Source: a virus (taxonomy: Duplodnaviria; Caudoviricetes). Taken from it: a stretch of DNA of 58,982 nt. Positions 16,318-42,254 of the stretch are shown one piece after another. Numbering within the stretch: position 1 is the first letter of the stretch; each line of letters begins with the position of its first letter. The DNA lies in the IMG/VR virus record IMGVR_UViG_3300007539_000021, positions 1 to 58,982 of that record; one strand, written 5' to 3'. A program made the position numbers and the translations under genes. The notes beneath the pieces were generated by a model. The model searched no databases. It was not told the DNA's origin and saw only the letters and a list, made by a program, of their open reading frames with translations.

Positions 16318-16328
16318 AAACAATCCAT

Positions 16329-16417
16329 AGTATCTACTAAGTAAGTATCTACTTATTAAAAAAACTTAATGGGTATATATACCACTTGGTATATACTATA
16401 TAGGAGGTATATCTACT
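16329..16417. repeat. Cluster of near-palindromic (A/G)GTAT(A/C)TACT-like 10-12-mers upstream of terL
   Basis: agtatctact 16329 and 16344, ggtatatatacc 16372, ggtatatact 16388, ggtatatctact 16406. Confidence 0.7.
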
Positions 16418-16485
16418 GCTAGACTTTAACATAATATACCCTCTTCACATTCAACGCAATAACTTATTTAAAAAAAATATACTAT

Positions 16486-16657
16486 GGGGGGTATGGGACT
16501 CCTACCCTTAATCCACATTCGATTATATATATCAAACAAAAAGAGCTATCACTTTGCTATATAATAGGGGGGGGTATACCAAAGTTGGGTATCGAATGAG
16601 TAAATCACTATGTATAGAGTGACAAGCAAGTTGCCAATTACTCAACGGGGGTGGGGG
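16486..16657 (+). other. Oligo-G tracts in the terS-terL intergenic region (candidate pac/terminus region)
   Basis: G6 at 16486, G8 at 16567, G5-T-G5 at 16647 in AT-rich non-coding DNA; function inferred. Confidence 0.45.
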
Positions 16658-16777
16658 TCGCCTAGATTTTTCACTTTGATTTTGCTCAAGTGGTACCTAT
16701 CTTTCCCAATTACTGGGTAAAGCATAATTCCAGATGATCTGAGATTTCAGATGATGATAGCGAAATGAAATCTCTTA

Positions 16778-17281
16778 TTAGTGGTGGTCGTCTACGACTT
16801 CATTCTCTAGAAGTCTGAGTATCTCTGCCTCGATTGTTGAGGAGTCTCTCTGTTCTTTTACCTCGACTGTGTCTGTGAACATACCGGAGGTTTTACCTAG
16901 TAGTTCCAAAGACCTAACCCTACTTGCCGGAGTAGAGTCCTCGTTGTCTCCTCGACTCTCTGCAAGGAGCCGTTCTAAAACATAACTCCTCGTACGGATA
17001 GAGGAAGCTACTACACCCTCCTCTCGCTTACTGATAGCACGTTGTATGCTTAGGGAAATCTTAGGGTTAGCCAACATCTTGGAAGCTTCTACATTTACCC
17101 ATTTAGGAATGGAGCCGTTCTTGTTTAACTTCACGTCATAGACTTTTGCGTATGCTTCTTTGTAAGTTGTTTTTCCTTTTACTATCTCTTCAATAAAGGC
17201 TCTTTGTTTCGGAGTAAGTTCTGTTTCTGGTTTCGGTTTCGTGCCGACTATTTTTAGGTTGGGTTTTTTCTCATCAGTCAT
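16778..17281 (-). CDS. terS: Terminase small subunit
   Basis: LTPKQRAFIEE...YKEAY...ASKMLANPKI...RVRSLELLGKTSGMFTD TerS HTH pattern; upstream of terL; likely start MTDEKK. Confidence 0.8.
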   Translation of the reverse strand: MTDEKKPNLKIVGTKPKPETELTPKQRAFIEEIVKGKTTYKEAYAKVYDVKLNKNGSIPKWVNVEASKMLANPKISLSIQRAISKREEGVVASSIRTRSYVLERLLAESRGDNEDSTPASRVRSLELLGKTSGMFTDTVEVKEQRDSSTIEAEILRLLENEVVDDHH

Positions 17282-17310
17282 AAGAAATATTTTACCGGTA
17301 AACCTTTTCC
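17282..17310. promoter_or_regulatory. 30-bp palindromic motif, copy 1
   Basis: AAGAAATATTTTACCGGTAAACCTTTTCC abutting the terS start codon at the divergent junction. Confidence 0.65.
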
Positions 17311-17367
17311 TACGTAATGACCTCATAGTGATAGCGAATTAAAGGTGTTTCTTGAGGTGGAATTTAG

Positions 17368-17373
17368 TATAAT
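17368..17373 (+). promoter_or_regulatory. Putative early promoter -10 box
   Basis: Perfect TATAAT at the head of the plus-strand arm; no good -35 at canonical spacing. Confidence 0.5.
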
Positions 17374-17379
17374 TCTCTT

Positions 17380-17795
17380 ATGGACATGACGTTTTTCAGT
17401 ACCCAAAAATCAAGCAAGGACTTGAGGCTCGAACACGTCATAATTTTTGAGGAGGTGTCTATAGAAAAGTAGTTTTAATTTTTATCGGTAGTCTATTCGT
17501 ACAGACTCCGTGAAGGTCGTCCTAGTATTCTTTATTACCCAAAAACTAGGTCAGGTCGTGATGACGGATTAATGGAACAATCTCGAGCCGTACCTTAAAC
17601 ACCCTTACCTAACCGGTATATGGAGTATTGAAACAGATACGAAACCGGTAGGTCTCGAAAGCAAAGTGACAGCAATTGCTCCAACGAGACCGAGTCTTGA
17701 TGTTAAATAAACAGACCCTAAATAATTTTTTTTGCGACAGAAATTCCTAACCAAATTATTTGAGAGGGATAGCGTTTTGTTATCCCTTTCAAATT
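17380..17795 (+). ncRNA. Candidate large structured leader RNA
   Basis: Stems AUGACGU/ACGUCAU, UCAAG/CUUGA, AGUCU/AGACU, CCUAGU/ACUAGG, ACCGGU/ACCGGU, GGUCUCG/CGAGACC; long-range GGCUCGA/UCGAGCC; loop-loop UGGAGUA/UGCUCCA; no long ORF. Confidence 0.55.
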
Positions 17796-17799
17796 TCTT
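17758..17799 (+). terminator. Terminator-like hairpin ahead of hammerhead 1
   Basis: AUUUGAGAGGGAUAGC-GUUUU-GUUAUCCCUUUCAAAU then UUCUU (weak U tract). Confidence 0.5.
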
Positions 17800-17848
17800 A
17801 CTGTCACTAGGTGTGTGCCTAGTCTGAGGAAGCGAAAGCAGAAACAGT
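17800..17848 (+). ncRNA. Type III hammerhead ribozyme 1 (predicted GUC cleavage after 17805)
   Basis: Stem III ACUGU/ACAGU; stem I ACUAGG/CCUAGU with loop UGUGUG; core CUGAGGA; stem II A-GC-GAAA-GC-A; GAAA. Confidence 0.8.
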
Positions 17849-17877
17849 TAACCTATAAATATTTCTTAGGAGGAAAT

Positions 17878-18003
17878 ATGAAAATACAAATGACAGACGT
17901 TCATGTCTCTAAACTGAACAGACGTAATAGAAAGAAACCTATTGCGAAATTTAAACTTGAGAAATTCGACAATGAAATTCTCGTATCTAAGGAGGTGTAC
18001 TAA
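17878..18003 (+). CDS. Small basic hypothetical protein (41 aa)
   Basis: AGGAGG RBS, MKIQMTDVHVSKLNRRNRKK; TAATG coupling to the AAA gene. Confidence 0.7.
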   Translation: MKIQMTDVHVSKLNRRNRKKPIAKFKLEKFDNEILVSKEVY

Positions 18004-19109
18004 TGAGTGCCAAAGATAAAACTTATACTCCTTCGGAAGCTATCGAAGGTATGTTGGAAATTACTCCAATGAAAAGTGCAGACGGAACGGACTTAGTTCC
18101 TTGCTTACTCGGTGGAGTAGGTATCGGTAAGTCCTCTCTTGTCGAACAATATGCTAAGACTCTCGCTAATGGTCGAAAGCTTGTCTACGGAAAAATAAAT
18201 CCGAGTGAGGACGAGTTCTCTCTCATTGACTTGAGGATTGCAGACTTGGAGCCGGAGGACACGAGAGGTGTTCCGGTGGTTGATATGGCTGACGGACAGC
18301 CGGTACAACGTCTCGCTCAATTACAAAACTTGCCGGTCTCCGGAAGTGGAGTTTTGTTTCTTGACGAGTTCGCACAAGCTACTCCGGAAATGCAAAAGAT
18401 TGCCGGACGTGGTGTGCGTGAAAGGATTATTGGCGAAACAAAAATCTCTGACGGATTTAAAATTGTTTTAGCCGGTAATAGACAGACCGATAGAGCCGGA
18501 GCAAATTCTATCCTCGCTCACTTGTTAGACAGAGTGATAGAAATGCACGTGGAAGGCGATACTAATTCTTGGTTAGCTTGGGCAACGAAGAATGATGTAC
18601 ACCCTCTGATAACTTCGTTCATAAACTATCAGCCTCAGTTCTTGAATATGTTCGACCCTAAGTTGAAAGAGAGTCAGAGTTCCTCAAGGACTTGGTCAAT
18701 GGCTAGTCCGATAGTCCGAAGGTATGAGAACGATTTGACTAACTCAATGTTCGGTAAGCTTATGAGTGGTTGTGTTGGCTCAGAGAGTACGGCTGAGTTC
18801 TTAACGTTCGTTAACCTCATGCAAAACGTTCCGTCTCTTGACGACATTGTGAGTGGCGAGGACGTGGAAGTTCCGGAAGGAGTTGGTCTGCAATATGCGA
18901 CTTGCTGTGGACTCGTTAAGGTCTTGTCTGAGTGCAAGGACAAGGACTTAGTTTCCTATTGGGAAAATTCTCTCAAGTATGTTGAGAAGTTCCCAACGGC
19001 TGAGTTCGGTATCTACTTCGTACGTTCTTGTGTTGGAGCAAGACCGGAGTTGGAGAAGAGCAAGGCGTTCGGACAATTCCGTGTTGATAACCAAAACCTA
19101 ATTCTGTAG
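18003..19109 (+). CDS. MoxR/CobS-like AAA+ ATPase
   Basis: Walker A GGVGIGKS, IDLR..DLEPEDTRGVP, Walker B LFLDE, LAGNR, sensor LLDR. Confidence 0.9.
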   Translation: MSAKDKTYTPSEAIEGMLEITPMKSADGTDLVPCLLGGVGIGKSSLVEQYAKTLANGRKLVYGKINPSEDEFSLIDLRIADLEPEDTRGVPVVDMADGQPVQRLAQLQNLPVSGSGVLFLDEFAQATPEMQKIAGRGVRERIIGETKISDGFKIVLAGNRQTDRAGANSILAHLLDRVIEMHVEGDTNSWLAWATKNDVHPLITSFINYQPQFLNMFDPKLKESQSSSRTWSMASPIVRRYENDLTNSMFGKLMSGCVGSESTAEFLTFVNLMQNVPSLDDIVSGEDVEVPEGVGLQYATCCGLVKVLSECKDKDLVSYWENSLKYVEKFPTAEFGIYFVRSCVGARPELEKSKAFGQFRVDNQNLIL

Positions 19110-19123
19110 GTCTTGGTTTTTTT
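19089..19123 (+). terminator. Intrinsic terminator overlapping the AAA gene stop
   Basis: AACCAAAACCUA-AUUCUG-UAGGUCUUGGUU followed by a U run. Confidence 0.6.
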
Positions 19124-19129
19124 GGAAGT

Positions 19130-19164
19130 GAGAGAAATATTTTACTAGTAAGATAGTTTCTCTC
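19130..19164. promoter_or_regulatory. 30-bp palindromic motif, copy 2
   Basis: GAGAGAAATATTTTACTAGTAAGATAGTTTCTCTC, 6 nt before hammerhead 2. Confidence 0.75.
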
Positions 19165-19170
19165 GCTCCC

Positions 19171-19230
19171 ATAAACTGATAATCGAGTGTGACTCGGTCT
19201 GACGATTACGAGAGTATGAAATCAGTTTAT
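19171..19230 (+). ncRNA. Type III hammerhead ribozyme 2 (predicted AUA cleavage after 19181)
   Basis: 10-bp stem III AUAAACUGAU/AUCAGUUUAU; stem I AUCGAG/CUCGGU with loop UGUGA; core CUGACGA; stem II U-UAC-GAGA-GUA-U; GAAA. Confidence 0.85.
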
Positions 19231-19255
19231 TAACTTTTTTTTCATGGAGGTATAT

Positions 19256-20212
19256 ATGAAAAAAGATAAAACTTTAGAGTCTGTTTTTTCAGACTCGTTT
19301 GTTAAGGTGGTCTTTCGCAGAGGTTTACCCTCTGACCAAAAGGTCAATCCTAAAAGCAAGAAGGAGTTAGCAAAGATGTTCAAGTCTGACCCTTCAATGC
19401 ACACGGCTTCGGACTATTTGTTTCCGGAGAAAATCAATTCCTATTTTAGGAAATACTTCGTAGCGTTTGAGACGACTGTGTTCAAGCCGTTGTCGTATCC
19501 TTGGTCGGACGGAGATACTAACTCTTCCCAATGGAGGATTATCCCTAACGACAAAGTGACTCAGTTGGAGAAACTCTACAAGCAACACAAGGCAATGTTT
19601 GAAAAAGCAGTTGACTCGTTTTGTTCCAATTACGATTGGCATATTGAAAATGCCAAGAAGAAATTGGGAGAAGCTTTCAACATCAATAACTATGATGATG
19701 TAGAAACTTTCAGAGCGAAGTGCAAATTTGAAATACAGTTTGGAGCCTTTGAGTCTGTGACATTTTCTAATGACGCTAGAGTTCAATTGTCTGCCGAGCA
19801 ACGTTCAATGATTGAGAGTCAAGTTGCGAGTAATTTCAAAGAGACTCACAACATGATTGCCAAAGAGCAAATGGACAGTCTGACTGTGGCTCTCGACAAT
19901 GTCTTAATTGCAATGGACAAGGAAGGCAACAAAGGGTCGTTCTTTAAACGTGCAGTCTTTGATAACCTCAAGTCTAAAGTTGAGGACGTTCAAAGTATCA
20001 ACGACAAGCTTCTTAAAAGTAAGAAATTGTCCGGTGTGATATCTCAAGTGACTGCGACCTTGACCAAGGTCTCGAACGGCATAGAGTCTCTCAAAGGCAA
20101 GGACGACCTTGCAGTTGAAAACCGAGAGTCTATGAAAGAAGAGATAACCTCTGCCAAGAAAAGTCTTAACGACTCTATCTTCGGTGGACTAATGGGAGGC
20201 GACAATGAGTGA
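19256..20212 (+). CDS. Helical hypothetical protein (possibly DUF3150-like partner of AAA/VWA modules)
   Basis: GGAGG RBS; lies between the AAA and VWA genes; family call inferred mainly from context. Confidence 0.6.
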   Translation: MKKDKTLESVFSDSFVKVVFRRGLPSDQKVNPKSKKELAKMFKSDPSMHTASDYLFPEKINSYFRKYFVAFETTVFKPLSYPWSDGDTNSSQWRIIPNDKVTQLEKLYKQHKAMFEKAVDSFCSNYDWHIENAKKKLGEAFNINNYDDVETFRAKCKFEIQFGAFESVTFSNDARVQLSAEQRSMIESQVASNFKETHNMIAKEQMDSLTVALDNVLIAMDKEGNKGSFFKRAVFDNLKSKVEDVQSINDKLLKSKKLSGVISQVTATLTKVSNGIESLKGKDDLAVENRESMKEEITSAKKSLNDSIFGGLMGGDNE

Positions 20213-21815: not shown

Positions 21816-21875
21816 AAAACTGATAATCAAGTGTGTGCTTGGTCTGAATGATTACAAAAGTATGAAATCAGTTTT
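21816..21875 (+). ncRNA. Type III hammerhead ribozyme 3, core-insertion variant (predicted AUA cleavage after 21825)
   Basis: Stem III AAAACUGAU/AUCAGUUUU; stem I AUCAAG/CUUGGU with loop UGUGUG; core CUGAAUGA (one extra nt); stem II U-UAC-AAAA-GUA-U; GAAA. Confidence 0.75.
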
Positions 21876-23767: not shown

Positions 23768-23771
23768 AATT

Positions 23772-23820
23772 AGCCGAGGCTATGTGGTATTTATTTACTG
23801 CATAGTCTCGGTTTTTTTTT
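23772..23820 (+). terminator. Intrinsic terminator ending the early operon
   Basis: AGCCGAGGCUAUGUGGUA...UACUGCAUAGUCUCGGU followed by a long U tract. Confidence 0.9.
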
Positions 23821-23901
23821 GGCTCAAAATTTCTAGAGATGATGACATTTTTCAGGTTTGTTCTCCTGCGACTTTACATTTTTTTATGACAATCCCTTGT
23901 T

Positions 23902-23931
23902 GAGAAAGTATTTACTAGTAAATATTTTTTC
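23902..23931. promoter_or_regulatory. 30-bp palindromic motif, copy 4
   Basis: GAGAAAGTATTTACTAGTAAATATTTTTTC, intergenic; flanked by complementary TCCTGCG/CGCAGGA. Confidence 0.8.
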
Positions 23932-24086
23932 ACGCAGGATAAATCTGGCTGTGGAATACAACAAAGTTTGTGAAAAAAATCAACAGCAGATAGTTATTTT
24001 TACGCTATAAAAACTAATCGTATTATTCCGTATGATTATTAAGTGGCTGACGTATACCGGTCTTAATATAAATGGCTGACGTATGC

Positions 24087-24116
24087 TTGTCAGGTCATAT
24101 CATAATGCTATATAAT
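24087..24116 (+). promoter_or_regulatory. Sigma70-type promoter, preceded by tandem TGGCTGACGTAT boxes (24044, 24073)
   Basis: TTGTCA-18 bp-TATAAT. Confidence 0.65.
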
Positions 24117-35891: not shown

Positions 35892-38800
35892 TTACATTTC
35901 TCTATAGAAAGGAAAGTGGTCTGCGTTTTCTCTCCAGATTTGTGCAGTACCTCTAGTTTCGATTAGCTCTCCTTCTTTTGCACGTGAGTTATATATTTCA
36001 ACTGCTTTAAGTAGTGCCTCTCTGTTTCCGGATTTAGCTACATCAGTAAACCCAACTTTATTTAATTCAACTCTAAACTCGTTGTCACTTCTTTCTTCCT
36101 GAAGTATACCGGTATCTACTCCATAGTTTATTGTGTACTCATTAAACTTCTGATAGTCGTCAAATACTTTTTCAATCCATTTATACTCCTGACCTATTTG
36201 CAAACCATCTTGTATTTCTTGGTCAGACAAAGGTATGTCTATAAGTCTTTCTTCTGTAAATGTTCCGTCCTCTTGTTGAACTTTAATTTTTTCTTTTACT
36301 AATCTTCTACCTCTTCTAGCTATAAAATAAGCTTTAGTTAAAGACTCAAAGTCTATGCCGTACTCTGCAGAGTTTTGATAAATTGGAGCAAATATATTTA
36401 TTAAATTTAATTTAGAGTCTTTAAGCGTAGAAGTTAAACCATATTTTAAAGTCAAAGGTCCATGACTCATCATGGCAGATAAAACACCTCTAGCATTATC
36501 TATAAATCTTAAAGCTTGAATTGCTCCGGTAGAAGCACGTCTTTCTAATTCAAGCACTTGACTAGAGTCACCGGCTAAAATCTTTTGACCCGTCAATAAC
36601 ATTTGTCTGTTGTCTATAATCTCTTGTCTAAATCTATTTATAAAAGAACGAGCAGACTCTGCAGCATTTGTGACACTATTTAGTGCGTCAAAGAAACCAC
36701 CTTTTTCTTGAGGCTTACTTTTACCTCCTGTTTTGTCTACAACATTTTTATACTGTGGAGGTATAGTTCCTGTACCTCTCATGTATGGGTCCTCAGGTAA
36801 AATGTTTTCAGGCTTTAATCCGTTCCTGACTTCTAGTGCAGTACGTATAGCTAGTCCACTAGCATTAGGATTTATTAAAGGAACAGCTCCGGCTGTATAA
36901 TTTTGTGCCTCTGCTTTTGCAAAAGCTACAGCCTCTGCGTCTGCAAGTTCATCTTTAGTAGGTTTGTTAGTAGTAAGTTGTGGATTAAAAGCCGAGTTAG
37001 GCATAGCAAAATTTCTGCTTCTGCCTTGTGTCGGTACGCTAACTCCTAGTTCTTTTTGGAAACCTTGGAAGGCTCTAAGGGCAGGGAGGTAGAGATTACT
37101 GAGGAGGGCTCTCCGTATATCGGGTGCGTTGAAGGTACTGGTGTAATCCCTAAGGTTTTCAATACCTCCTCTTGTTCCTGTTCTGTCATCTCTTGTTGGT
37201 CCGTAGCTGACGAGTTCTGCTTTTTGTCCATAAGTATTTATATTATATCCTGAATTAGCAAACAAATCATTTAAGAAAGTCATGTATGTTTGATACATTT
37301 CTTTTGAATATGGCTCACCATTAAATTGTTTTTTGTCTGTGAAAGTCAAGGCATTGCCTGATGACTGTAAAACAAACTCTCCTATATCTCCGTTAGGGTC
37401 ACCTCTTTGAATTCTTTCTTGAATAGATTTTATTTCATCAATAGTAAAGCCTTCATTATTAGGCTTTGTTAACATAGCAGCTTGTCTCTTAGCACCTTGT
37501 GCTGTAGGTGTAGTTATCAAAGTAGAGTCTAAATATAAAGCGTCAGTTAAAAACTGTGCAACTCCTCTAAGTGTTGCGTCACTTGCATTAGGCATAGATA
37601 AATTAAATCCCGGAGTCAGATATCCACCATTGTATGTTCCTGCATTAAGAGTTATAGAGTGAGGTATCTTTAAAAATTTAAGAAACTTTAATTGATTGCC
37701 CTCAGTTATTGAACGAAAAACTGTATTGAAATATTCTATTTTTTTTCTATATGGAATAGATTTAGACTCAGACCAAACACCACGTATCTCAGTACCGGGC
37801 ATGATACCTACTTCAATTACGGGTGACAGTTCTGCAATAGCCTCTTGATAGTTTCTCTGTGTCACACTTCCATATGTGCCTTTAACATTTTGATATGCAA
37901 TGTTTTGAGGCGAGTTAATCATTCTATCTGTTAATGGAGTAGCAGTATCAAACTTACCTTCTCTTTGCATTTCTTGTATTTCAGCTATTTGTTCTTGTGC
38001 TGCTGCTTCTGCTGAAGCATAACTACCTTCGTTAGTAGGATTAGTTCCTCCTTCATATCTTTGCAATCCCCACAACATAGCTTGGATTTCTGATGGCTCT
38101 TGATATTTTTTACGTACTCCATTAACGTTATAAACTTCTGTGCTTAATAATCTCATTAAGTCATTTTGAAATTGATACTCGATAGCAGTAGGACTCTCTT
38201 GATTTTTCTCTGGTTTGTTTGGGTCTATCATTCCAAACTGCCTTCTCATATGAATATCGTTAACTGTAAATGGAGTAAACCTACCCTGACTTGCTTCAAA
38301 TATTTGATTAGCATAAAAAGCTGTCTTAGCTCCTGTATCTTTATTCTGAAATAGACCTGTCTTATAAAACTCTTGTATTTGTTTTAATCGAGTAGGATTT
38401 TTCATGCCCACACTTTTGTCTGCTAAAGCAGTTATAAATCTTTTAGGACTTTTGATAGGGTCTATCTTCCTAGCAATTATCATAGTATTTAAAGTATCTT
38501 GATAATTTTTTTCAGGAGTCTGTTGTGCAGATGTTATTCCAAAGACAGCACTAAACTCTGTCATGTTAGCATCACCAATTAATAAAGGAACTTTCTGTGC
38601 CCATCTTGTATACCATAAATGGTCATAACCCATACGTGCAGCTTCGGCTACTTTCTTTTTTAATTCCTTATATGAAGGTATAGGTAAAAACTTTTGAGAC
38701 TGTGGAGCAAACTGTTTGAATATTGCTCTCATTTCTGCAGAAGATATATCTCCTTTCTGCACTAAAGTATTCTCAAGCTCTTCAAATATAGCTGAACGAT

Positions 38801-41800
38801 TTATTTCATCTTCGCTCAAGACCTCTCTCATTTGTGGGTCAACATCTTGTCCGGCTAAAATATCTTGTGCTGTAGGTCTACCCTGAGTCCCTCCTTCTTC
38901 TAGTTCATCTAACTCGGCTGCAGGTTGTAAAAGTCTAGACTGATTACTTGCTGTCATACGCAAGTTTCTTTTTACACCTCTTTCTCTGCTACCTATTTCT
39001 CCTGACGCAATCCTCTCTAATAAAACAGTAGGACTGCCAAACTCAGAAGCATTTATTGAAAATAAAAACTCTTGTAAAAAATTTAATATCCTTTGGATTA
39101 AACTTCTTGGTTTACCAATAACTCCTTTAGGGTCATTTCTATAATATCGAAACAATTCTGCTACAAGTTCTTCCTCAAAACCTCTAGCTGTTATACCACC
39201 GGGTTGTCCTAGTCCATATGATTTAGCCATGCCGTCTTGTATATCTTGAGACAATGCTTTTTTTGCATATCGAACAAGATTTAAAAACTCATCTTCAGTT
39301 ATTAAATCCAATTGCATCATAGCGTGTATAGCTTCGTGGTCTATTCTGCCACTTAAAACGTCTACTAGTTCTGCTTCAGATAGCTGATTATTAGGGTCAA
39401 TACTTTCTAATTTCAATAAGATAGTATTCAAAGCTTTGTCATACATACCAACAGCTTCTTTATCAATCAAGCTCATTTTGTCAGTACGATTTGGGTCAGC
39501 AATATAAACAAGTTTGCCATTGCCATCACGTCTTATGTTTTGTGAACTAGATAAGAAGTTTGTAATTCTAAGTGCTACATCTTTAAGACCTAATTTATTT
39601 AATCTACCTTGCAATTCTTTTGCAAGATTAGGCATAGACTCATTTGTAATAGGTGCAGGTAATAGAGGTATATTGAATTGCTCTTCAGTCATACCTAGGT
39701 CAGCTATTTGTTCAGCAGATAAAACAGTAGATATTCTAGCTTTGTAATCTTCTACAGTTTCGCCTTCTTTCCTAGAAGCCTTAGACATTTCATCTGTTTT
39801 AAATTGACTGTTGCCTAACGTTCTGCCTTTTACTTTTTTTAGTCTGCCACTATTTATTAAATCTTCTTTAAACTGTCTAATATTCTGCTGACTTTTTTTA
39901 ATGTTTTGATTATCAAAAAATGTTTTTATATCATTTTCAGTTATAGCTTGACCTCTAGCTAAACCAAACAGCTCGTAAAAAGAATTCATTTGCTGTGCTG
40001 TATAAACTCTAGGAGTCAGCAAAGGTAATTTAGTTTTTACATCTAGTCTAGGCATACTATATATACGACTTAACAAGACCATCTTCTGTCCTTTGTTCAT
40101 CTTGTTATAGTTTTTTTCACCTGTAAGCTGTTCTGCAAAATATTGAAACTCTTTGCTGTTTATTTTTGCCTCAAGGTTTCTACTTTCTAATGCTTCATAT
40201 ATTGCTTGTCTACTTGTATCTTGAAATTTATTAGGAGAAAAATTATATCTTTGTATACTAGCTCCTCTTGGATTTAATCCGGACGCTATCCTATCTCCTG
40301 TTCTTTCGTTTCTTCTGCCGGTTGGTAAATATGCTCCTTCTTTTTCAGAATACTTAAAGATGATGTTTGCTTTTTCCATCATCAATTGATTGAAGTCATC
40401 AGGCTTTAGAATTTTTTTAGCTTCTTGATAAGTGTAGAAATTTTTACGAGGCAATCCAACTTGTTCAGCTCTGTCTTGCAAAAGTTGTACTAAACTTTTT
40501 TGCTCGTCTGTTTGTTTGTCAGCAGTAATTTGTTTGAGAGGAGATATATCTAAAGCTCCTTCTGTACTGTCTAATGTGCCCGGTATATCTAGCTGTTTAA
40601 ATCTTTGGTCTGGCTGACCACTTTTAGTAAGTCTTGTTTTGCCTTCCCTTCTATCTTTTAATCTTTTAGCTTTTAGTCTTTCAGCTTGTTTATTTAATTT
40701 TTCTAATTTTTTAGCTTGTTTTTGTCTAGCCTCACTTATCCTTGAGTCCATTACAGATAGAGTTCTTACGTCTACTACATTAAACAAAGGCGACAAAACT
40801 CTTTTGCCTAAACTTTTTATAGAGCCACTTTCTTTTAGACCTGCAATATCTAATACATTATCAATTGCATCATTTACAAATTTTGTTCTATTTTTCTTTT
40901 CTTGTTCTACAGCAGATTGTGCAGCTTCATTTACTGTAGCTATAGGGTCAAAGTCAAATTTTTGTATACGCTGACCTTGTTCATCTAAAAGTGGATTACC
41001 TTGAGCGTCTATTTCAAATCCGGCAGCAACTTCAACTTTGTGTGTGCTGTATATCTTTCCTGTATCTTCACCTATAACTAATACACTTCCATCAGTTTGC
41101 TCTTCAAGTTTTAATTGCTCAATAACTTGTAATTCTTTTTTCTCTTCTGGCTCTATAGTTTCTTCATATTCTTCAACCAAATCTTCTTCACGCATTATTG
41201 AAGGACCTGTAGCCTGTAGCTCTTCATCATCTTGTTTTCTTGCTTCAAAGATTTCTTTTTCACCACTTTCTTCAACAGCTTGTTTTTCTAAGTCAAGAGT
41301 ATATTTGTTAGCAATAGGTCGTCTACCTGTGAAGCCTCTAACTAATAAGTCAGCTATTGCTCCTGTACCACCACCTACAGTAAAGTCATCAAACATACTG
41401 TCACCAATAGGTATCTCGTCACTATAAAGTCCACGTGCTACAGCGTCTTGCATAATACTTGCCATAGTTTCTTGAACAGCCTCTACAGTACCTGTGCCTA
41501 ATGCTGACCTAATACGTGCAGCTACATCTAAAACTTCGCCATCACTTTTAGTAATCTTTCTTAAAAGTCTGTCAGGTGCAAATAGTTCTGTAAGACCTAT
41601 AAGACCACCGGCAGTCTCTGCAGCAAATTCTCTAAATGGACTTACCTCTTCCCCTAACTGTCTAGCTTGTTCTATCCTATCTCCTTGTTCTGATATACCC
41701 AAAGGCACAGCTAATGAGGCACTAGCAATCGTAGGTCCTCTTTGGACAGCTCTAATCATTTTGTCAATTTTTTGTATTTCAGAAAGCTCAGTTGCTTTTG

Positions 41801-42254
41801 CTCTTAGATTGCCTAACCTCCTTAATTTTTCTGTAGTATTTAATACTTTGGCTGCACCAAATCCCGGAACAAAAAAAGAAGCAAAACTACCAAGACCTTG
41901 TCCTAGTTTAGTAGTGTACAAATCTTCATAGCCTTCTTCTGTGGGTAAAAGACTTTCATTGAGATATCGTTGCATACCTCTAAGTCCGTCACCAATAGCA
42001 CTATCATTACCACTATCAAAGAAATTTACTAAACCTTCTGCACCTCCAATAAAGCCTCCGGCTAATCCTTTAGCAACTCCTTTGGTAAATTCACTAGCTC
42101 TACCAACAACAGTAGGGTCTACCTCTTCTTTATATGGAGTGTAGTAATCAGGATATTGTTCTGCTAAAAAGTTTTGTAAACCAATAACATATTCTCTAGA
42201 AGGATTATCTTCTATCTCAATATATTTGCCATCTGGTAAATTAAATCTTTGCAT
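35892..42254 (-). CDS. Large internal virion / ejection polyvalent protein (N-terminal 2120 aa)
   Basis: Gly/Ala-rich hydrophobic N-terminus; HEAIH...EELVAE zincin motif; WY...TSAQQTPEKN...NDIHM...QAMLW domain; ends FPFYR. Confidence 0.8.
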   Translation of the reverse strand: MQRFNLPDGKYIEIEDNPSREYVIGLQNFLAEQYPDYYTPYKEEVDPTVVGRASEFTKGVAKGLAGGFIGGAEGLVNFFDSGNDSAIGDGLRGMQRYLNESLLPTEEGYEDLYTTKLGQGLGSFASFFVPGFGAAKVLNTTEKLRRLGNLRAKATELSEIQKIDKMIRAVQRGPTIASASLAVPLGISEQGDRIEQARQLGEEVSPFREFAAETAGGLIGLTELFAPDRLLRKITKSDGEVLDVAARIRSALGTGTVEAVQETMASIMQDAVARGLYSDEIPIGDSMFDDFTVGGGTGAIADLLVRGFTGRRPIANKYTLDLEKQAVEESGEKEIFEARKQDDEELQATGPSIMREEDLVEEYEETIEPEEKKELQVIEQLKLEEQTDGSVLVIGEDTGKIYSTHKVEVAAGFEIDAQGNPLLDEQGQRIQKFDFDPIATVNEAAQSAVEQEKKNRTKFVNDAIDNVLDIAGLKESGSIKSLGKRVLSPLFNVVDVRTLSVMDSRISEARQKQAKKLEKLNKQAERLKAKRLKDRREGKTRLTKSGQPDQRFKQLDIPGTLDSTEGALDISPLKQITADKQTDEQKSLVQLLQDRAEQVGLPRKNFYTYQEAKKILKPDDFNQLMMEKANIIFKYSEKEGAYLPTGRRNERTGDRIASGLNPRGASIQRYNFSPNKFQDTSRQAIYEALESRNLEAKINSKEFQYFAEQLTGEKNYNKMNKGQKMVLLSRIYSMPRLDVKTKLPLLTPRVYTAQQMNSFYELFGLARGQAITENDIKTFFDNQNIKKSQQNIRQFKEDLINSGRLKKVKGRTLGNSQFKTDEMSKASRKEGETVEDYKARISTVLSAEQIADLGMTEEQFNIPLLPAPITNESMPNLAKELQGRLNKLGLKDVALRITNFLSSSQNIRRDGNGKLVYIADPNRTDKMSLIDKEAVGMYDKALNTILLKLESIDPNNQLSEAELVDVLSGRIDHEAIHAMMQLDLITEDEFLNLVRYAKKALSQDIQDGMAKSYGLGQPGGITARGFEEELVAELFRYYRNDPKGVIGKPRSLIQRILNFLQEFLFSINASEFGSPTVLLERIASGEIGSRERGVKRNLRMTASNQSRLLQPAAELDELEEGGTQGRPTAQDILAGQDVDPQMREVLSEDEINRSAIFEELENTLVQKGDISSAEMRAIFKQFAPQSQKFLPIPSYKELKKKVAEAARMGYDHLWYTRWAQKVPLLIGDANMTEFSAVFGITSAQQTPEKNYQDTLNTMIIARKIDPIKSPKRFITALADKSVGMKNPTRLKQIQEFYKTGLFQNKDTGAKTAFYANQIFEASQGRFTPFTVNDIHMRRQFGMIDPNKPEKNQESPTAIEYQFQNDLMRLLSTEVYNVNGVRKKYQEPSEIQAMLWGLQRYEGGTNPTNEGSYASAEAAAQEQIAEIQEMQREGKFDTATPLTDRMINSPQNIAYQNVKGTYGSVTQRNYQEAIAELSPVIEVGIMPGTEIRGVWSESKSIPYRKKIEYFNTVFRSITEGNQLKFLKFLKIPHSITLNAGTYNGGYLTPGFNLSMPNASDATLRGVAQFLTDALYLDSTLITTPTAQGAKRQAAMLTKPNNEGFTIDEIKSIQERIQRGDPNGDIGEFVLQSSGNALTFTDKKQFNGEPYSKEMYQTYMTFLNDLFANSGYNINTYGQKAELVSYGPTRDDRTGTRGGIENLRDYTSTFNAPDIRRALLSNLYLPALRAFQGFQKELGVSVPTQGRSRNFAMPNSAFNPQLTTNKPTKDELADAEAVAFAKAEAQNYTAGAVPLINPNASGLAIRTALEVRNGLKPENILPEDPYMRGTGTIPPQYKNVVDKTGGKSKPQEKGGFFDALNSVTNAAESARSFINRFRQEIIDNRQMLLTGQKILAGDSSQVLELERRASTGAIQALRFIDNARGVLSAMMSHGPLTLKYGLTSTLKDSKLNLINIFAPIYQNSAEYGIDFESLTKAYFIARRGRRLVKEKIKVQQEDGTFTEERLIDIPLSDQEIQDGLQIGQEYKWIEKVFDDYQKFNEYTINYGVDTGILQEERSDNEFRVELNKVGFTDVAKSGNREALLKAVEIYNSRAKEGELIETRGTAQIWRENADHFPFYREM

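Follow-up and report, generated by a model that had tools for sequence, protein, structure and literature searches.

A conserved leader RNA, predicted to end at a hammerhead ribozyme, at the head of an operon in uncultured aquatic phages

Introduction

What does a phage do with a long non-coding segment that precedes the first gene of an operon and ends at a motif resembling a self-cleaving ribozyme? Clustered hammerhead motifs, lying on one strand between the genes of phage and prophage operons, have been described and proposed to cut polycistronic RNA into gene-length pieces; what they do there has not been settled since their first listing (PMC3088659). The 58,982-bp DNA analyzed here, called the window in its whole length, is a complete phage genome in a single virus record (IMG/VR IMGVR_UViG_3300007539_000021). 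It contains a 551-nt gap that separates the divergently oriented terS gene and an operon encoding an AAA-ATPase, and the stretch in question (17380-17795, + strand) lies inside that gap. A sequence-only reading had described this stretch as a highly structured leader RNA of about 400 nt with probable pseudoknots, perhaps a put-like cis antiterminator or a protein sponge.

The results presented below indicate that the stretch very probably belongs to a new, conserved + strand RNA that extends from a promoter to a ribozyme and carries a structured 3' domain. The broader proposal, that this RNA is the ribozyme-released first segment of a hammerhead-punctuated operon and that one of its own loops gates its release, stands about evenly balanced between acceptance and doubt.

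Conservation and boundaries of the leader

The elements on which the argument depends are the following.

17368-17373, + strand: -10 box TATAAT of an inferred promoter, with no good -35 box in the window
17380-17805, + strand: predicted leader RNA of 426 nt, from A17380 as the putative start to the predicted hammerhead cut after C17805
17380-17472, + strand: leaderless open reading frame (ORF) of 30 codons, starting at the predicted +1
17451-17457, + strand: GGAGGTG box that resembles a Shine-Dalgarno sequence and is not followed by a start codon
17612-17649, + strand: hairpin Pa, in which ACCGGU 17612-17617 pairs with ACCGGU 17644-17649 and an inner helix joins 17625-17629 with 17636-17640; found in both the minimum free energy (MFE) and the centroid fold
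17651-17691, + strand: hairpin Pb, in which GGUCUCG 17651-17657 pairs with CGAGACC 17685-17691 and an inner helix joins 17660-17664 with 17676-17680
17665-17675, + strand: loop of Pb, AGUGACAGCAA, which contains GUGACAG and is complementary to UUACUGUCACU at 17798-17808 on the cut-site strand
17692-17757, + strand: A/U-rich linker, mostly single-stranded (unpaired in centroid folds)
17758-17794, + strand: terminal hairpin, with a core of 14 bp at 17760-17792
17799-17849, + strand: hammerhead-like type III motif from a motif scan, with stem III ACUGU/ACAGU, GUC at 17803-17805 (cut after 17805), stem I at 17806-17823, CUGAGGA, stem II AGC-GAAA-GCA, and GAAAC

Homologous loci were collected by a protein-guided scan, which gave 8 close loci with AAA proteins 93-100% identical, and by a second scan, based on aligned ATPases of greater distance, which added about 74 further loci (AAA 41-46%). 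Full-length counterparts of the leader were found by nhmmer, run with the gap sequence and then with a profile, in only a subset of these loci, and a pattern built on the terminal hairpin led to full-length homologues in 19 IMG/VR contigs that represent 13 distinct versions. These versions were aligned (MAFFT E-INS-i was among the methods used) and form two clades: clade A consists of the window, L003, L004 and L006, and clade B of nine versions (L106, a clade B sequence that contains Ns, was left out of the counts). A genome scan with the hairpin pattern returned two matches, both due to chance and one of them a terminator in a Maribacter bin; a metagenome scan with a loose pattern returned 120 stretches, all of them chance, and none fitted the leader profile.

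The AAA proteins of clades A and B are about 43% identical. When the leader bodies were compared without the promoter, the terminal hairpin and the hammerhead, the two clades kept a collinear similarity (global alignment z 5.1-6.4) that 0 of 200 shuffles matched. The homology of the bodies rests on this shuffle test. The full-length nhmmer hits were seeded by the flanks, and a single-sequence nhmmer search with the leader body alone recovers nothing in clade B at E up to 1. Leaders of either clade, compared with those of two further types called C1 and C2 (see below), score at chance level (z -0.3 to 1.6). Rfam 15 (4227 models) gives no match at gathering score anywhere in the 58,982 bases and only chance-level matches (E 2-10) at E up to 10 in 17200-18100, and a scan of seven related loci gave nothing except one hammerhead.

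Between the window and its relatives L005 and L008, respectively, the 5' half of the leader is 93.4% and 91.2% identical and the 3' half 96.5% and 96.0%, while identity at third codon positions of the terL, terS, AAA, DUF3150 and DUF2201 genes ranges over 76-93%. In the 41-nt spacer that separates terS from the -10 box (17327-17367), it is 63% and 58.5%. Conservation therefore starts at the -10 box, as identity falls sharply just upstream of it, and it continues through the hammerhead-like element. Judged by these alignments, the leader is conserved under selection and its bases are under stronger constraint than the third codon positions nearby. The earlier description of a new large non-coding RNA is upheld by these comparisons, and the RNA is bounded by a conserved -10 box and by a hammerhead-like element that would release it.

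The box TA[TG]AAT occupies the -10 position in all 13 versions, and most relatives also carry the TGn of an extended -10. The site is not listed by a promoter consensus scan, and the -10 motif by itself is no rarer than chance. Expression data come from four RNA libraries in the form of contigs only, at a depth of 2-5. Contigs from three of the four (two studies) cover the leader in part, at 17442-17757, 17416-17564 and 17375-17532; another begins at 17812, and one crosses from terS over the spacer into the leader. They are a weak hint that the leader is transcribed and are silent on its ends, and parts of the leader without contig cover are not read as evidence.

The structured 3' domain

Over the full 416 nt, folding is modestly better than in shuffled sequence: the + strand has z -1.89, which 3 of 100 shuffles equal, and the - strand has z -2.26. 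The 3' half, 17606-17805, gives z -3.92 with none of 200 shuffles as good, and the 3' half of the distant homologue L071 gives z -5.53, again with 0 of 200. Without the terminal hairpin, the two-hairpin core reaches z -1.9 to -3.65. A covariance model built from clade B alone matches the window at 17618-17792 with 47.8 bits (E 2.5e-7).

Comparative evidence bears on each of the three hairpins. Pb is common to both clades: once the sequences are anchored at their ends, pairing holds in 88.5% of 61 cells and drops to 24-40% if the partner is slid. Of its 12 pairs, 5 have changed on both sides, and none of 500 shuffles reaches its covariation score. In the terminal hairpin all 84 cells are paired, against 44-57% when slid; two pairs show double-sided changes and five a one-sided change by way of G-U, a result equalled by 13 of 500 shuffles. 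Pa shows two double-sided changes in L004/L005 (C-G to U-A and G-C to C-G) along with one broken pair, and clade B has a different hairpin at its position. Within the linker, the blocks CCGAGUCU (17690-17697), AAUAAA and AAAUUCCU (17741-17748) are conserved between the clades. A column-wise helix search of the two-clade MAFFT alignment, the interior of which is misaligned, detected only the terminal hairpin and hammerhead stem I.

The terminal hairpin also tells the strand. Each version has two or three G-U pairs and no A-C, so the leader RNA is the + strand, since these pairs would be C-A mismatches on the other. The hairpin is listed as terminator-like, yet its tail starts AAAUUU, and it would terminate weakly if at all. 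The combination of hairpin plus hammerhead is a repeated module, and the most likely role of the leader's hairpin is protection of the released 3' end.

The claim of a highly structured + strand RNA with at least six stems is accordingly divided. It stands for the 3' half, where Pa, Pb and the terminal hairpin carry compensatory changes, and it is unsupported for the 400 nt as a whole: stems can be drawn in the 5' half and lack support.

The hammerhead-like elements

The motif at 17799-17849 is a probable hammerhead with a minimal stem II, as judged from its sequence. It has the CUGANGA ... GAAA core and a cleavable NUH, and apart from position N7 this core does not vary among the leader types. 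Stem I covaries, with three or four pairs changed on both sides; stem II, which also covaries, is AGC/GCA in most versions and a longer GGAAC/GUUCC in L051; and stem III is ACUGU/ACAGU or UCUGU/ACAGA. A sibling element, L038:1243-1298, scores 39.4 bits, below the Hammerhead_3 gathering score of 48.5.

Two more hammerhead-like motifs were seen between genes of the same operon, at 19175-19226 and 21819-21872 (+ strand). Both have the cut site CUGAUA, and ahead of each stands a hairpin that has UUUACUAGUAA as its loop and no U tract. Related loci hold one to five such motifs each, 190 on the operon strand against 29 on the other (some loci are entered repeatedly in these counts).

A loop complementary to the cut site

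The loop of Pb is complementary to the strand that contains the ribozyme cut site at 10 of 11 positions (inverted repeat I8), and in a search of the phage's own genome the adjacent ribozyme site was the only recurrent complement of the leader.

The recurrence of the GUGACAG loop is a solid observation. The heptamer is found in hairpin loops carried by different stems, AGCAA/UUGCU in the window and L058 and CAAUAA/UUAUUG in the C2 leader; in L024 a GUUA/UAAC stem can be read from the sequence, and the local MFE lacks that stem. Across 79 loci, a looser form, AAGUG[AG]C[AU]1-2G, has 38 copies on the + strand against a single one on the - strand, and most copies sit 126-185 nt ahead of the first hammerhead. 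Of 53 distinct CTGTC-type hammerheads, 11 have the exact heptamer at a distance of 60-250 nt on their upstream side, as against none of 62 hammerheads with other cut sites, counts to be read against a heptamer background of about 60 per 717 kb per strand and with the rows, which represent about six leader types, not all independent.

The bases flanking the heptamer in the duplex differ by leader type and are partly complementary to the type's own site: AGTGACAG in A, GTGACAGA in B, GTGACAGTT in C2 and TAGTGACAGT in L024. In five of the nine leader types tested, GUGACAG is the best duplex partner of the cut site. That the Pb loop actually pairs with the cut site is a hypothesis built on this complementarity.

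The 5' half of the leader

The 5' half (17380-17605) folds no better than shuffled sequence (z +0.25, 124 of 200 shuffles as good), and that of L071 behaves in the same way (z +0.35). Placed on the window MFE, the differences among close variants comprise three double changes, all of which keep pairs, eight single changes that keep pairs and eight that break them; seven of the last eight are in the 5' part. There are conserved blocks in this half, namely GGAGGUG, GAAGGUSG and CUA..UCAGG.

The individual features named by the sequence-only reading, from the -10 box to the ORF and the hairpin, are all where it had placed them, and TATAAT at 17368-17373 does put 17380 as the seventh base after it. 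Its proposed long-range helix, GGCTCGA 17426-17432 with TCGAGCC 17583-17589, is in the MFE of the isolated 5' half and missing from that of the full length; the close variants L004 and L006 preserve one pair through a compensating change (G-C to A-U) and have a mismatch left by a 1-nt deletion, and no equivalent was found in clade B. Its loop-loop complement, TGGAGTA 17621-17627 against TGCTCCA 17678-17684 (seven pairs including one G-U), is invariant in clade A and absent from clade B, which leaves nothing in its favour. Neither of these tertiary pairings has support outside the window's own clade. The duplicated loop sequence TACCCAAAAA is indeed present, at 17400-17409 and 17536-17545, and is kept in all close variants (9 of 10 bases for the second copy in L006), whereas clade B lacks it.

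Conservation at 91-93% in a half that folds no better than shuffles could be explained if the segment were a DNA-level control region with divergent promoters and operator or packaging sites, in which only the 3' hairpins act as RNA, protecting the end for the ribozyme module. The two copies of TACCCAAAAA form a direct repeat in clade A with a spacing of 136 nt. The promoter of the - strand terS block should lie within the 551-nt gap, because no other upstream region was found for that block, and the RNA-library contig that runs from terS across the spacer into the leader would fit such an arrangement. A weak -35/-10 match does occur on the - strand at 17783-17755, inside the terminal hairpin, and if it were used the terS operon would have a 5' untranslated region of about 420 nt wholly antisense to the leader. 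This match is lost, however, in C-type leaders, and no iterons or other repeats are common to clade A and clades B or C. Furthermore, a transcribed unit would account for the drop in identity right at the upstream edge of the -10 box, Pa and Pb covary and are outside any end-protection role, and the loop motif is strongly biased to the + strand (38 against 1). We regard control at the DNA level as decidedly unlikely.

The 30-codon open reading frame

An ATG follows the -10 box by 6-7 nt and opens a frame of 30-35 codons in all 13 versions, and the indels between the two clade B subtypes sum to a multiple of three. These observations would suit a leaderless mRNA for a peptide of 30 residues with a long structured 3' untranslated region, or a dual-function RNA. 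The chance of such an open frame is about 0.13-0.15 per lineage. The reading frame shows no codon-position bias, however (variable sites 3/4/4, 5/6/5 and 5/3/3). Between clades A and B the peptides have no significant resemblance (z -0.01 to 2.1), 8 of the 30 residues differ among phages whose AAA proteins are 93% identical, and the two clade B subtypes read conserved bases in different frames. The GGAGGTG box is kept in both clades, with the exception of L100 and L051, where a 1-nt insertion also alters the C-terminus of the ORF. The ORF is probably not a conserved protein by these sequence measures, and an mRNA for it is a very unlikely account of the leader.

The earlier reading would fall if this small ORF alone explained the conservation. 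The absence of codon-position bias speaks against that, as does the extent of the ORF, 93 of the 426 nt and none of the covarying part; since the 3' domain is outside it, the ORF cannot explain conservation there. We also observed that the C2 leader (L041:644-682) starts with an ATG at its predicted +1, in that case with 13 codons that include three prolines in a row.

Exchange of leader types

The phages L041 and L044 have AAA proteins 99% and TerS proteins 97% identical, and the 300 nt on the terS side are 96% identical. Their leaders belong to different types, C2 and C1, and the leader bodies are alike only at shuffle level (109 of 233 against 108 of 260). The distance from the -35 box to the cut is 326-328 nt in all four C-type loci measured. 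The reverse situation is seen between clades: A and B share a leader type with AAA proteins 43% identical, while B and C, with different leaders, are 52% identical.

The first ORF behind the hammerhead (98, 101 or 126 residues) provides a second variable unit. Among L041, L042, L043 and L044, whose AAA proteins are 99% identical, it occurs in all combinations with leader types C1 and C2, so that leader type and first downstream ORF assort independently. From these comparisons, the slot of promoter, RNA, hairpin and hammerhead is kept and its content exchanged, and the conserved hammerheads look like joints between shuffled cassettes.

C-type leaders were considered as relatives of clade B and are treated as different cassettes; the clade B covariance model detects none of them (best E 0.034, L079). 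The C1 leader (L042:735-1035 and 14 related loci) is a second, larger RNA family in the same slot, in which 22 of 30 predicted pairs have changed on both sides among 15 sequences. It has the conserved blocks AAAGGUUCUAG, AAAGUGGCUAGUGUGAGAGAG and AUUAAAGAG and no Rfam match in the loci scanned. Folding of C1 and C2 is not significant (z -1.57 and -0.34).

The operon behind the leader

The genes on either side of the leader are as follows.

16778-17326, - strand: terS (Terminase_2; PHROG terminase small subunit), first gene of a long block of structural genes
17326 down to 427, - strand: the structural block headed by terS
17878-18003, + strand: 41-codon ORF, the first of the operon
18003-19109, + strand: AAA_5/MoxR-like ATPase gene

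The + strand operon continues with a DUF3150-like gene, a DUF2201_N gene and more genes to about 24.9 kb. The 41-residue ORF is basic, with the run NRRNRKK; it has a strong Shine-Dalgarno sequence, lies directly behind the first hammerhead, overlaps the AAA start and occurs in clade A only. Other clades have unrelated acidic ORFs at that place, which differ between phages.

This arrangement brings up the possibility of a cis-acting 5' leader, working in nut- or put-like antitermination or processivity, or in translational control of the first genes, with the hammerhead trimming it afterwards. All transcription of the operon would pass through the leader, as there is no other promoter-like site in 17850-17877. 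The terminal hairpin is terminator-like and belongs to a region, 16500-19500, with 8 terminator-like sites against 2.3 in shuffles. The small basic ORF right behind the leader resembles lambda N behind nutL. That ORF, however, is missing from the other clades, and a lambda-type nut/N system, with a boxB-like hairpin and a small arginine-rich protein kept across relatives, was not found here. The put element of HK022 consists of two adjacent stem-loops of about 70 nt, located just behind the promoter and acting on polymerase without protein factors. Compared with these features, the first 226 nt of the leader fold no better than shuffles, their stems lack covariation, and the Rfam scans, which include cis-regulatory families, were empty. 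No put features were found, and the suggestion of a put-like cis antiterminator finds no backing. A U tract is missing from the hairpins ahead of the internal hammerheads, which leaves little to antiterminate. Finally, bodies that are exchanged between phages with operon genes 99% identical are ill-suited to a housekeeping cis element. A cis-acting leader is, on balance, unlikely.

In a protein search of a phage database, no cultured phage has a relative of the AAA ATPase with more than 32% identity, and leader DNA (17300-17900) has no match among the database records; the DNA runs that hold the leader stretch are labelled as aquatic, freshwater and marine metagenomes. No tRNA or tmRNA was found in the window.

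Some other regions of the genome deserve mention. The gap between terL and terS (16324-16777, - strand, 454 nt) has no ORF of more than 37 codons, a fold z of -2.04 and C tracts such as ACCCCCACCCCC, and it is 96-97% identical in close relatives, exceeding third codon positions. A gap of 347 nt without ORFs in the same operon as the leader (23768-24114, + strand) contains, at 24041, a sequence related to the loop motif, AAGTGGCTG; several related loci carry this variant downstream of the AAA gene. On the - strand, 35892-42254 encodes an ORF of 2120 residues with no PHROG family match.

Proposed mechanism

The favoured model is a ribozyme-released leader whose own loop may gate its release. Host RNA polymerase would start at about A17380 from the -10 box and make some 426 nt before reaching the hammerhead-like element, which would cut after C17805. 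The freed leader would have a 5' triphosphate at one end and a stable hairpin with a cyclic phosphate at the other, and the downstream mRNA, with the 41-codon ORF, the AAA ATPase and more genes, would be left with a 5'-OH. The functional core of the leader would be its 3' domain, that is, Pa, Pb, the A/U-rich linker and the terminal hairpin. GUGACAG in the Pb loop could pair across the scissile site CUGUC^AC. Transcription reaches the loop about 135 nt ahead of the site and about 175 nt ahead of the strand needed to complete the ribozyme, so the loop could hold the site in an uncleavable duplex until freed, and the leader would in this way gate both its own release and the maturation of the operon mRNA. 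We consider release of the leader as a discrete molecule to be somewhat probable, and gating of cleavage by the Pb loop to be a tentative, rather doubtful proposal.

A number of observations weigh against parts of this model. Both ends of the leader, 17380 and 17805, are inferred from sequence. One RNA-library contig, 17767-18035, bridges the predicted cut site, and so uncut molecules or DNA exist; at a depth of 2-5 the contigs may indeed include DNA carry-over. Stem II of the window's hammerhead has only two pairs plus an A-A, and the Rfam hammerhead models give this copy no score, whether at gathering, at E up to 10 or on an 81-nt slice. The loop-site pairing is not significant by itself, because its 8 contiguous pairs (G-U allowed) are the mode for shuffled upstream sequence, and the duplex energies beat shuffles weakly, with 47, 11, 62, 22 and 77 of 300 as good. 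The exact motif is lacking in 42 of the 53 CTGTC-type hammerheads, most C1 leaders are without the full motif, and the short form of clade B keeps GUGAC only. Antisense targets in the phage's own genome do not exceed chance (longest exact complement 12-13 nt; mode for shuffled leaders 13). Finally, the 5' half has neither thermodynamic nor covariation support, and more than half of the leader RNA is left unexplained for that reason.

A trans role for the released RNA may be suggested by its stability features, its position as the first product and the turnover of its cassettes, and the likeliest such role would be that a phage or host protein binds the conserved loop. The protein-sponge role raised by the earlier reading is conceivable; GGA, the element of a CsrB-like sponge, occurs about 7 times in 426 nt (counted by eye), near expectation. 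A more far-reaching and rather doubtful version of the model would see a family of swappable RNA cassettes at the start of a hammerhead-segmented operon, with the GUGACAG heptaloop hairpin as the one element common to them and as a built-in anti-ribozyme. By pairing across the scissile site of the first hammerhead, the loop would make self-cleavage, and thereby leader release and mRNA maturation, depend on a factor able to bind or open it. The outcome would be a naturally regulated hammerhead, and the conserved hammerhead sequences would double as recombination joints between cassettes.

The locus makes the question of what hammerheads do in phage operons testable, as it offers a defined non-coding first segment, constraint greater than at synonymous sites, a loop that matches its own cut site and exchange as a unit. 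If the loop gates cleavage, nature would offer here a hammerhead under the control of an RNA element upstream of it. For a released RNA that acts in trans, turnover in the manner of a cassette would point to specificity as its role, for example in defence, counter-defence or exclusion. Either way, the leader represents an unrecorded RNA family from abundant uncultured aquatic phages.

Comparison with known systems

One parallel in general layout is the pL operon of phage lambda, where the nutL leader lies upstream of N and is processed by RNase III. The order is the same in both: a promoter, a structured leader with a hairpin element, processing that separates leader from mRNA, and then early genes. 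The present leader differs in having a predicted cis ribozyme in place of RNase III, in lacking a conserved boxA/boxB or N-like protein, and in being twice as long.

The immunity RNAs C4 of P1/P7 and CI of P4 provide a second comparison. These RNAs of about 77-80 nt are cut by RNase P from the leader of an operon and pair with targets downstream in it. The leader described here would likewise give a discrete stable RNA from the leader of its own operon, and it likewise varies allelically between related phages, whereas it has no target beyond chance except the ribozyme site. Several large phage-associated RNAs in Rfam, GOLLD, ROOL, HEARO and IMES, are of unknown function. The leader is similar to them in being long, conserved, structured and borne by phages or metagenomes, and dissimilar in matching none of the 4227 Rfam models, in the smaller size of its structured part (about 200 nt) and in being tied to a ribozyme.

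A further comparison is with the clustered phage hammerheads. As in those operons, the window has several motifs on one strand, three in number, at 17799, 19175 and 21819; it differs from the account as far as it was consulted in its conserved non-coding first segment and in the element upstream that is complementary to the cut site, neither of which is described in those portions (PMC3088659). Full-text searches of the literature likewise found no such first segment with a cut-site-complementary loop, nor its cassette exchange; supplementary lists may include these hammerheads. Hammerhead-segmented phage operons are already known; measured against that literature and Rfam, what appears to be new here is a non-coding first segment that bears such a loop and is exchanged as a cassette.

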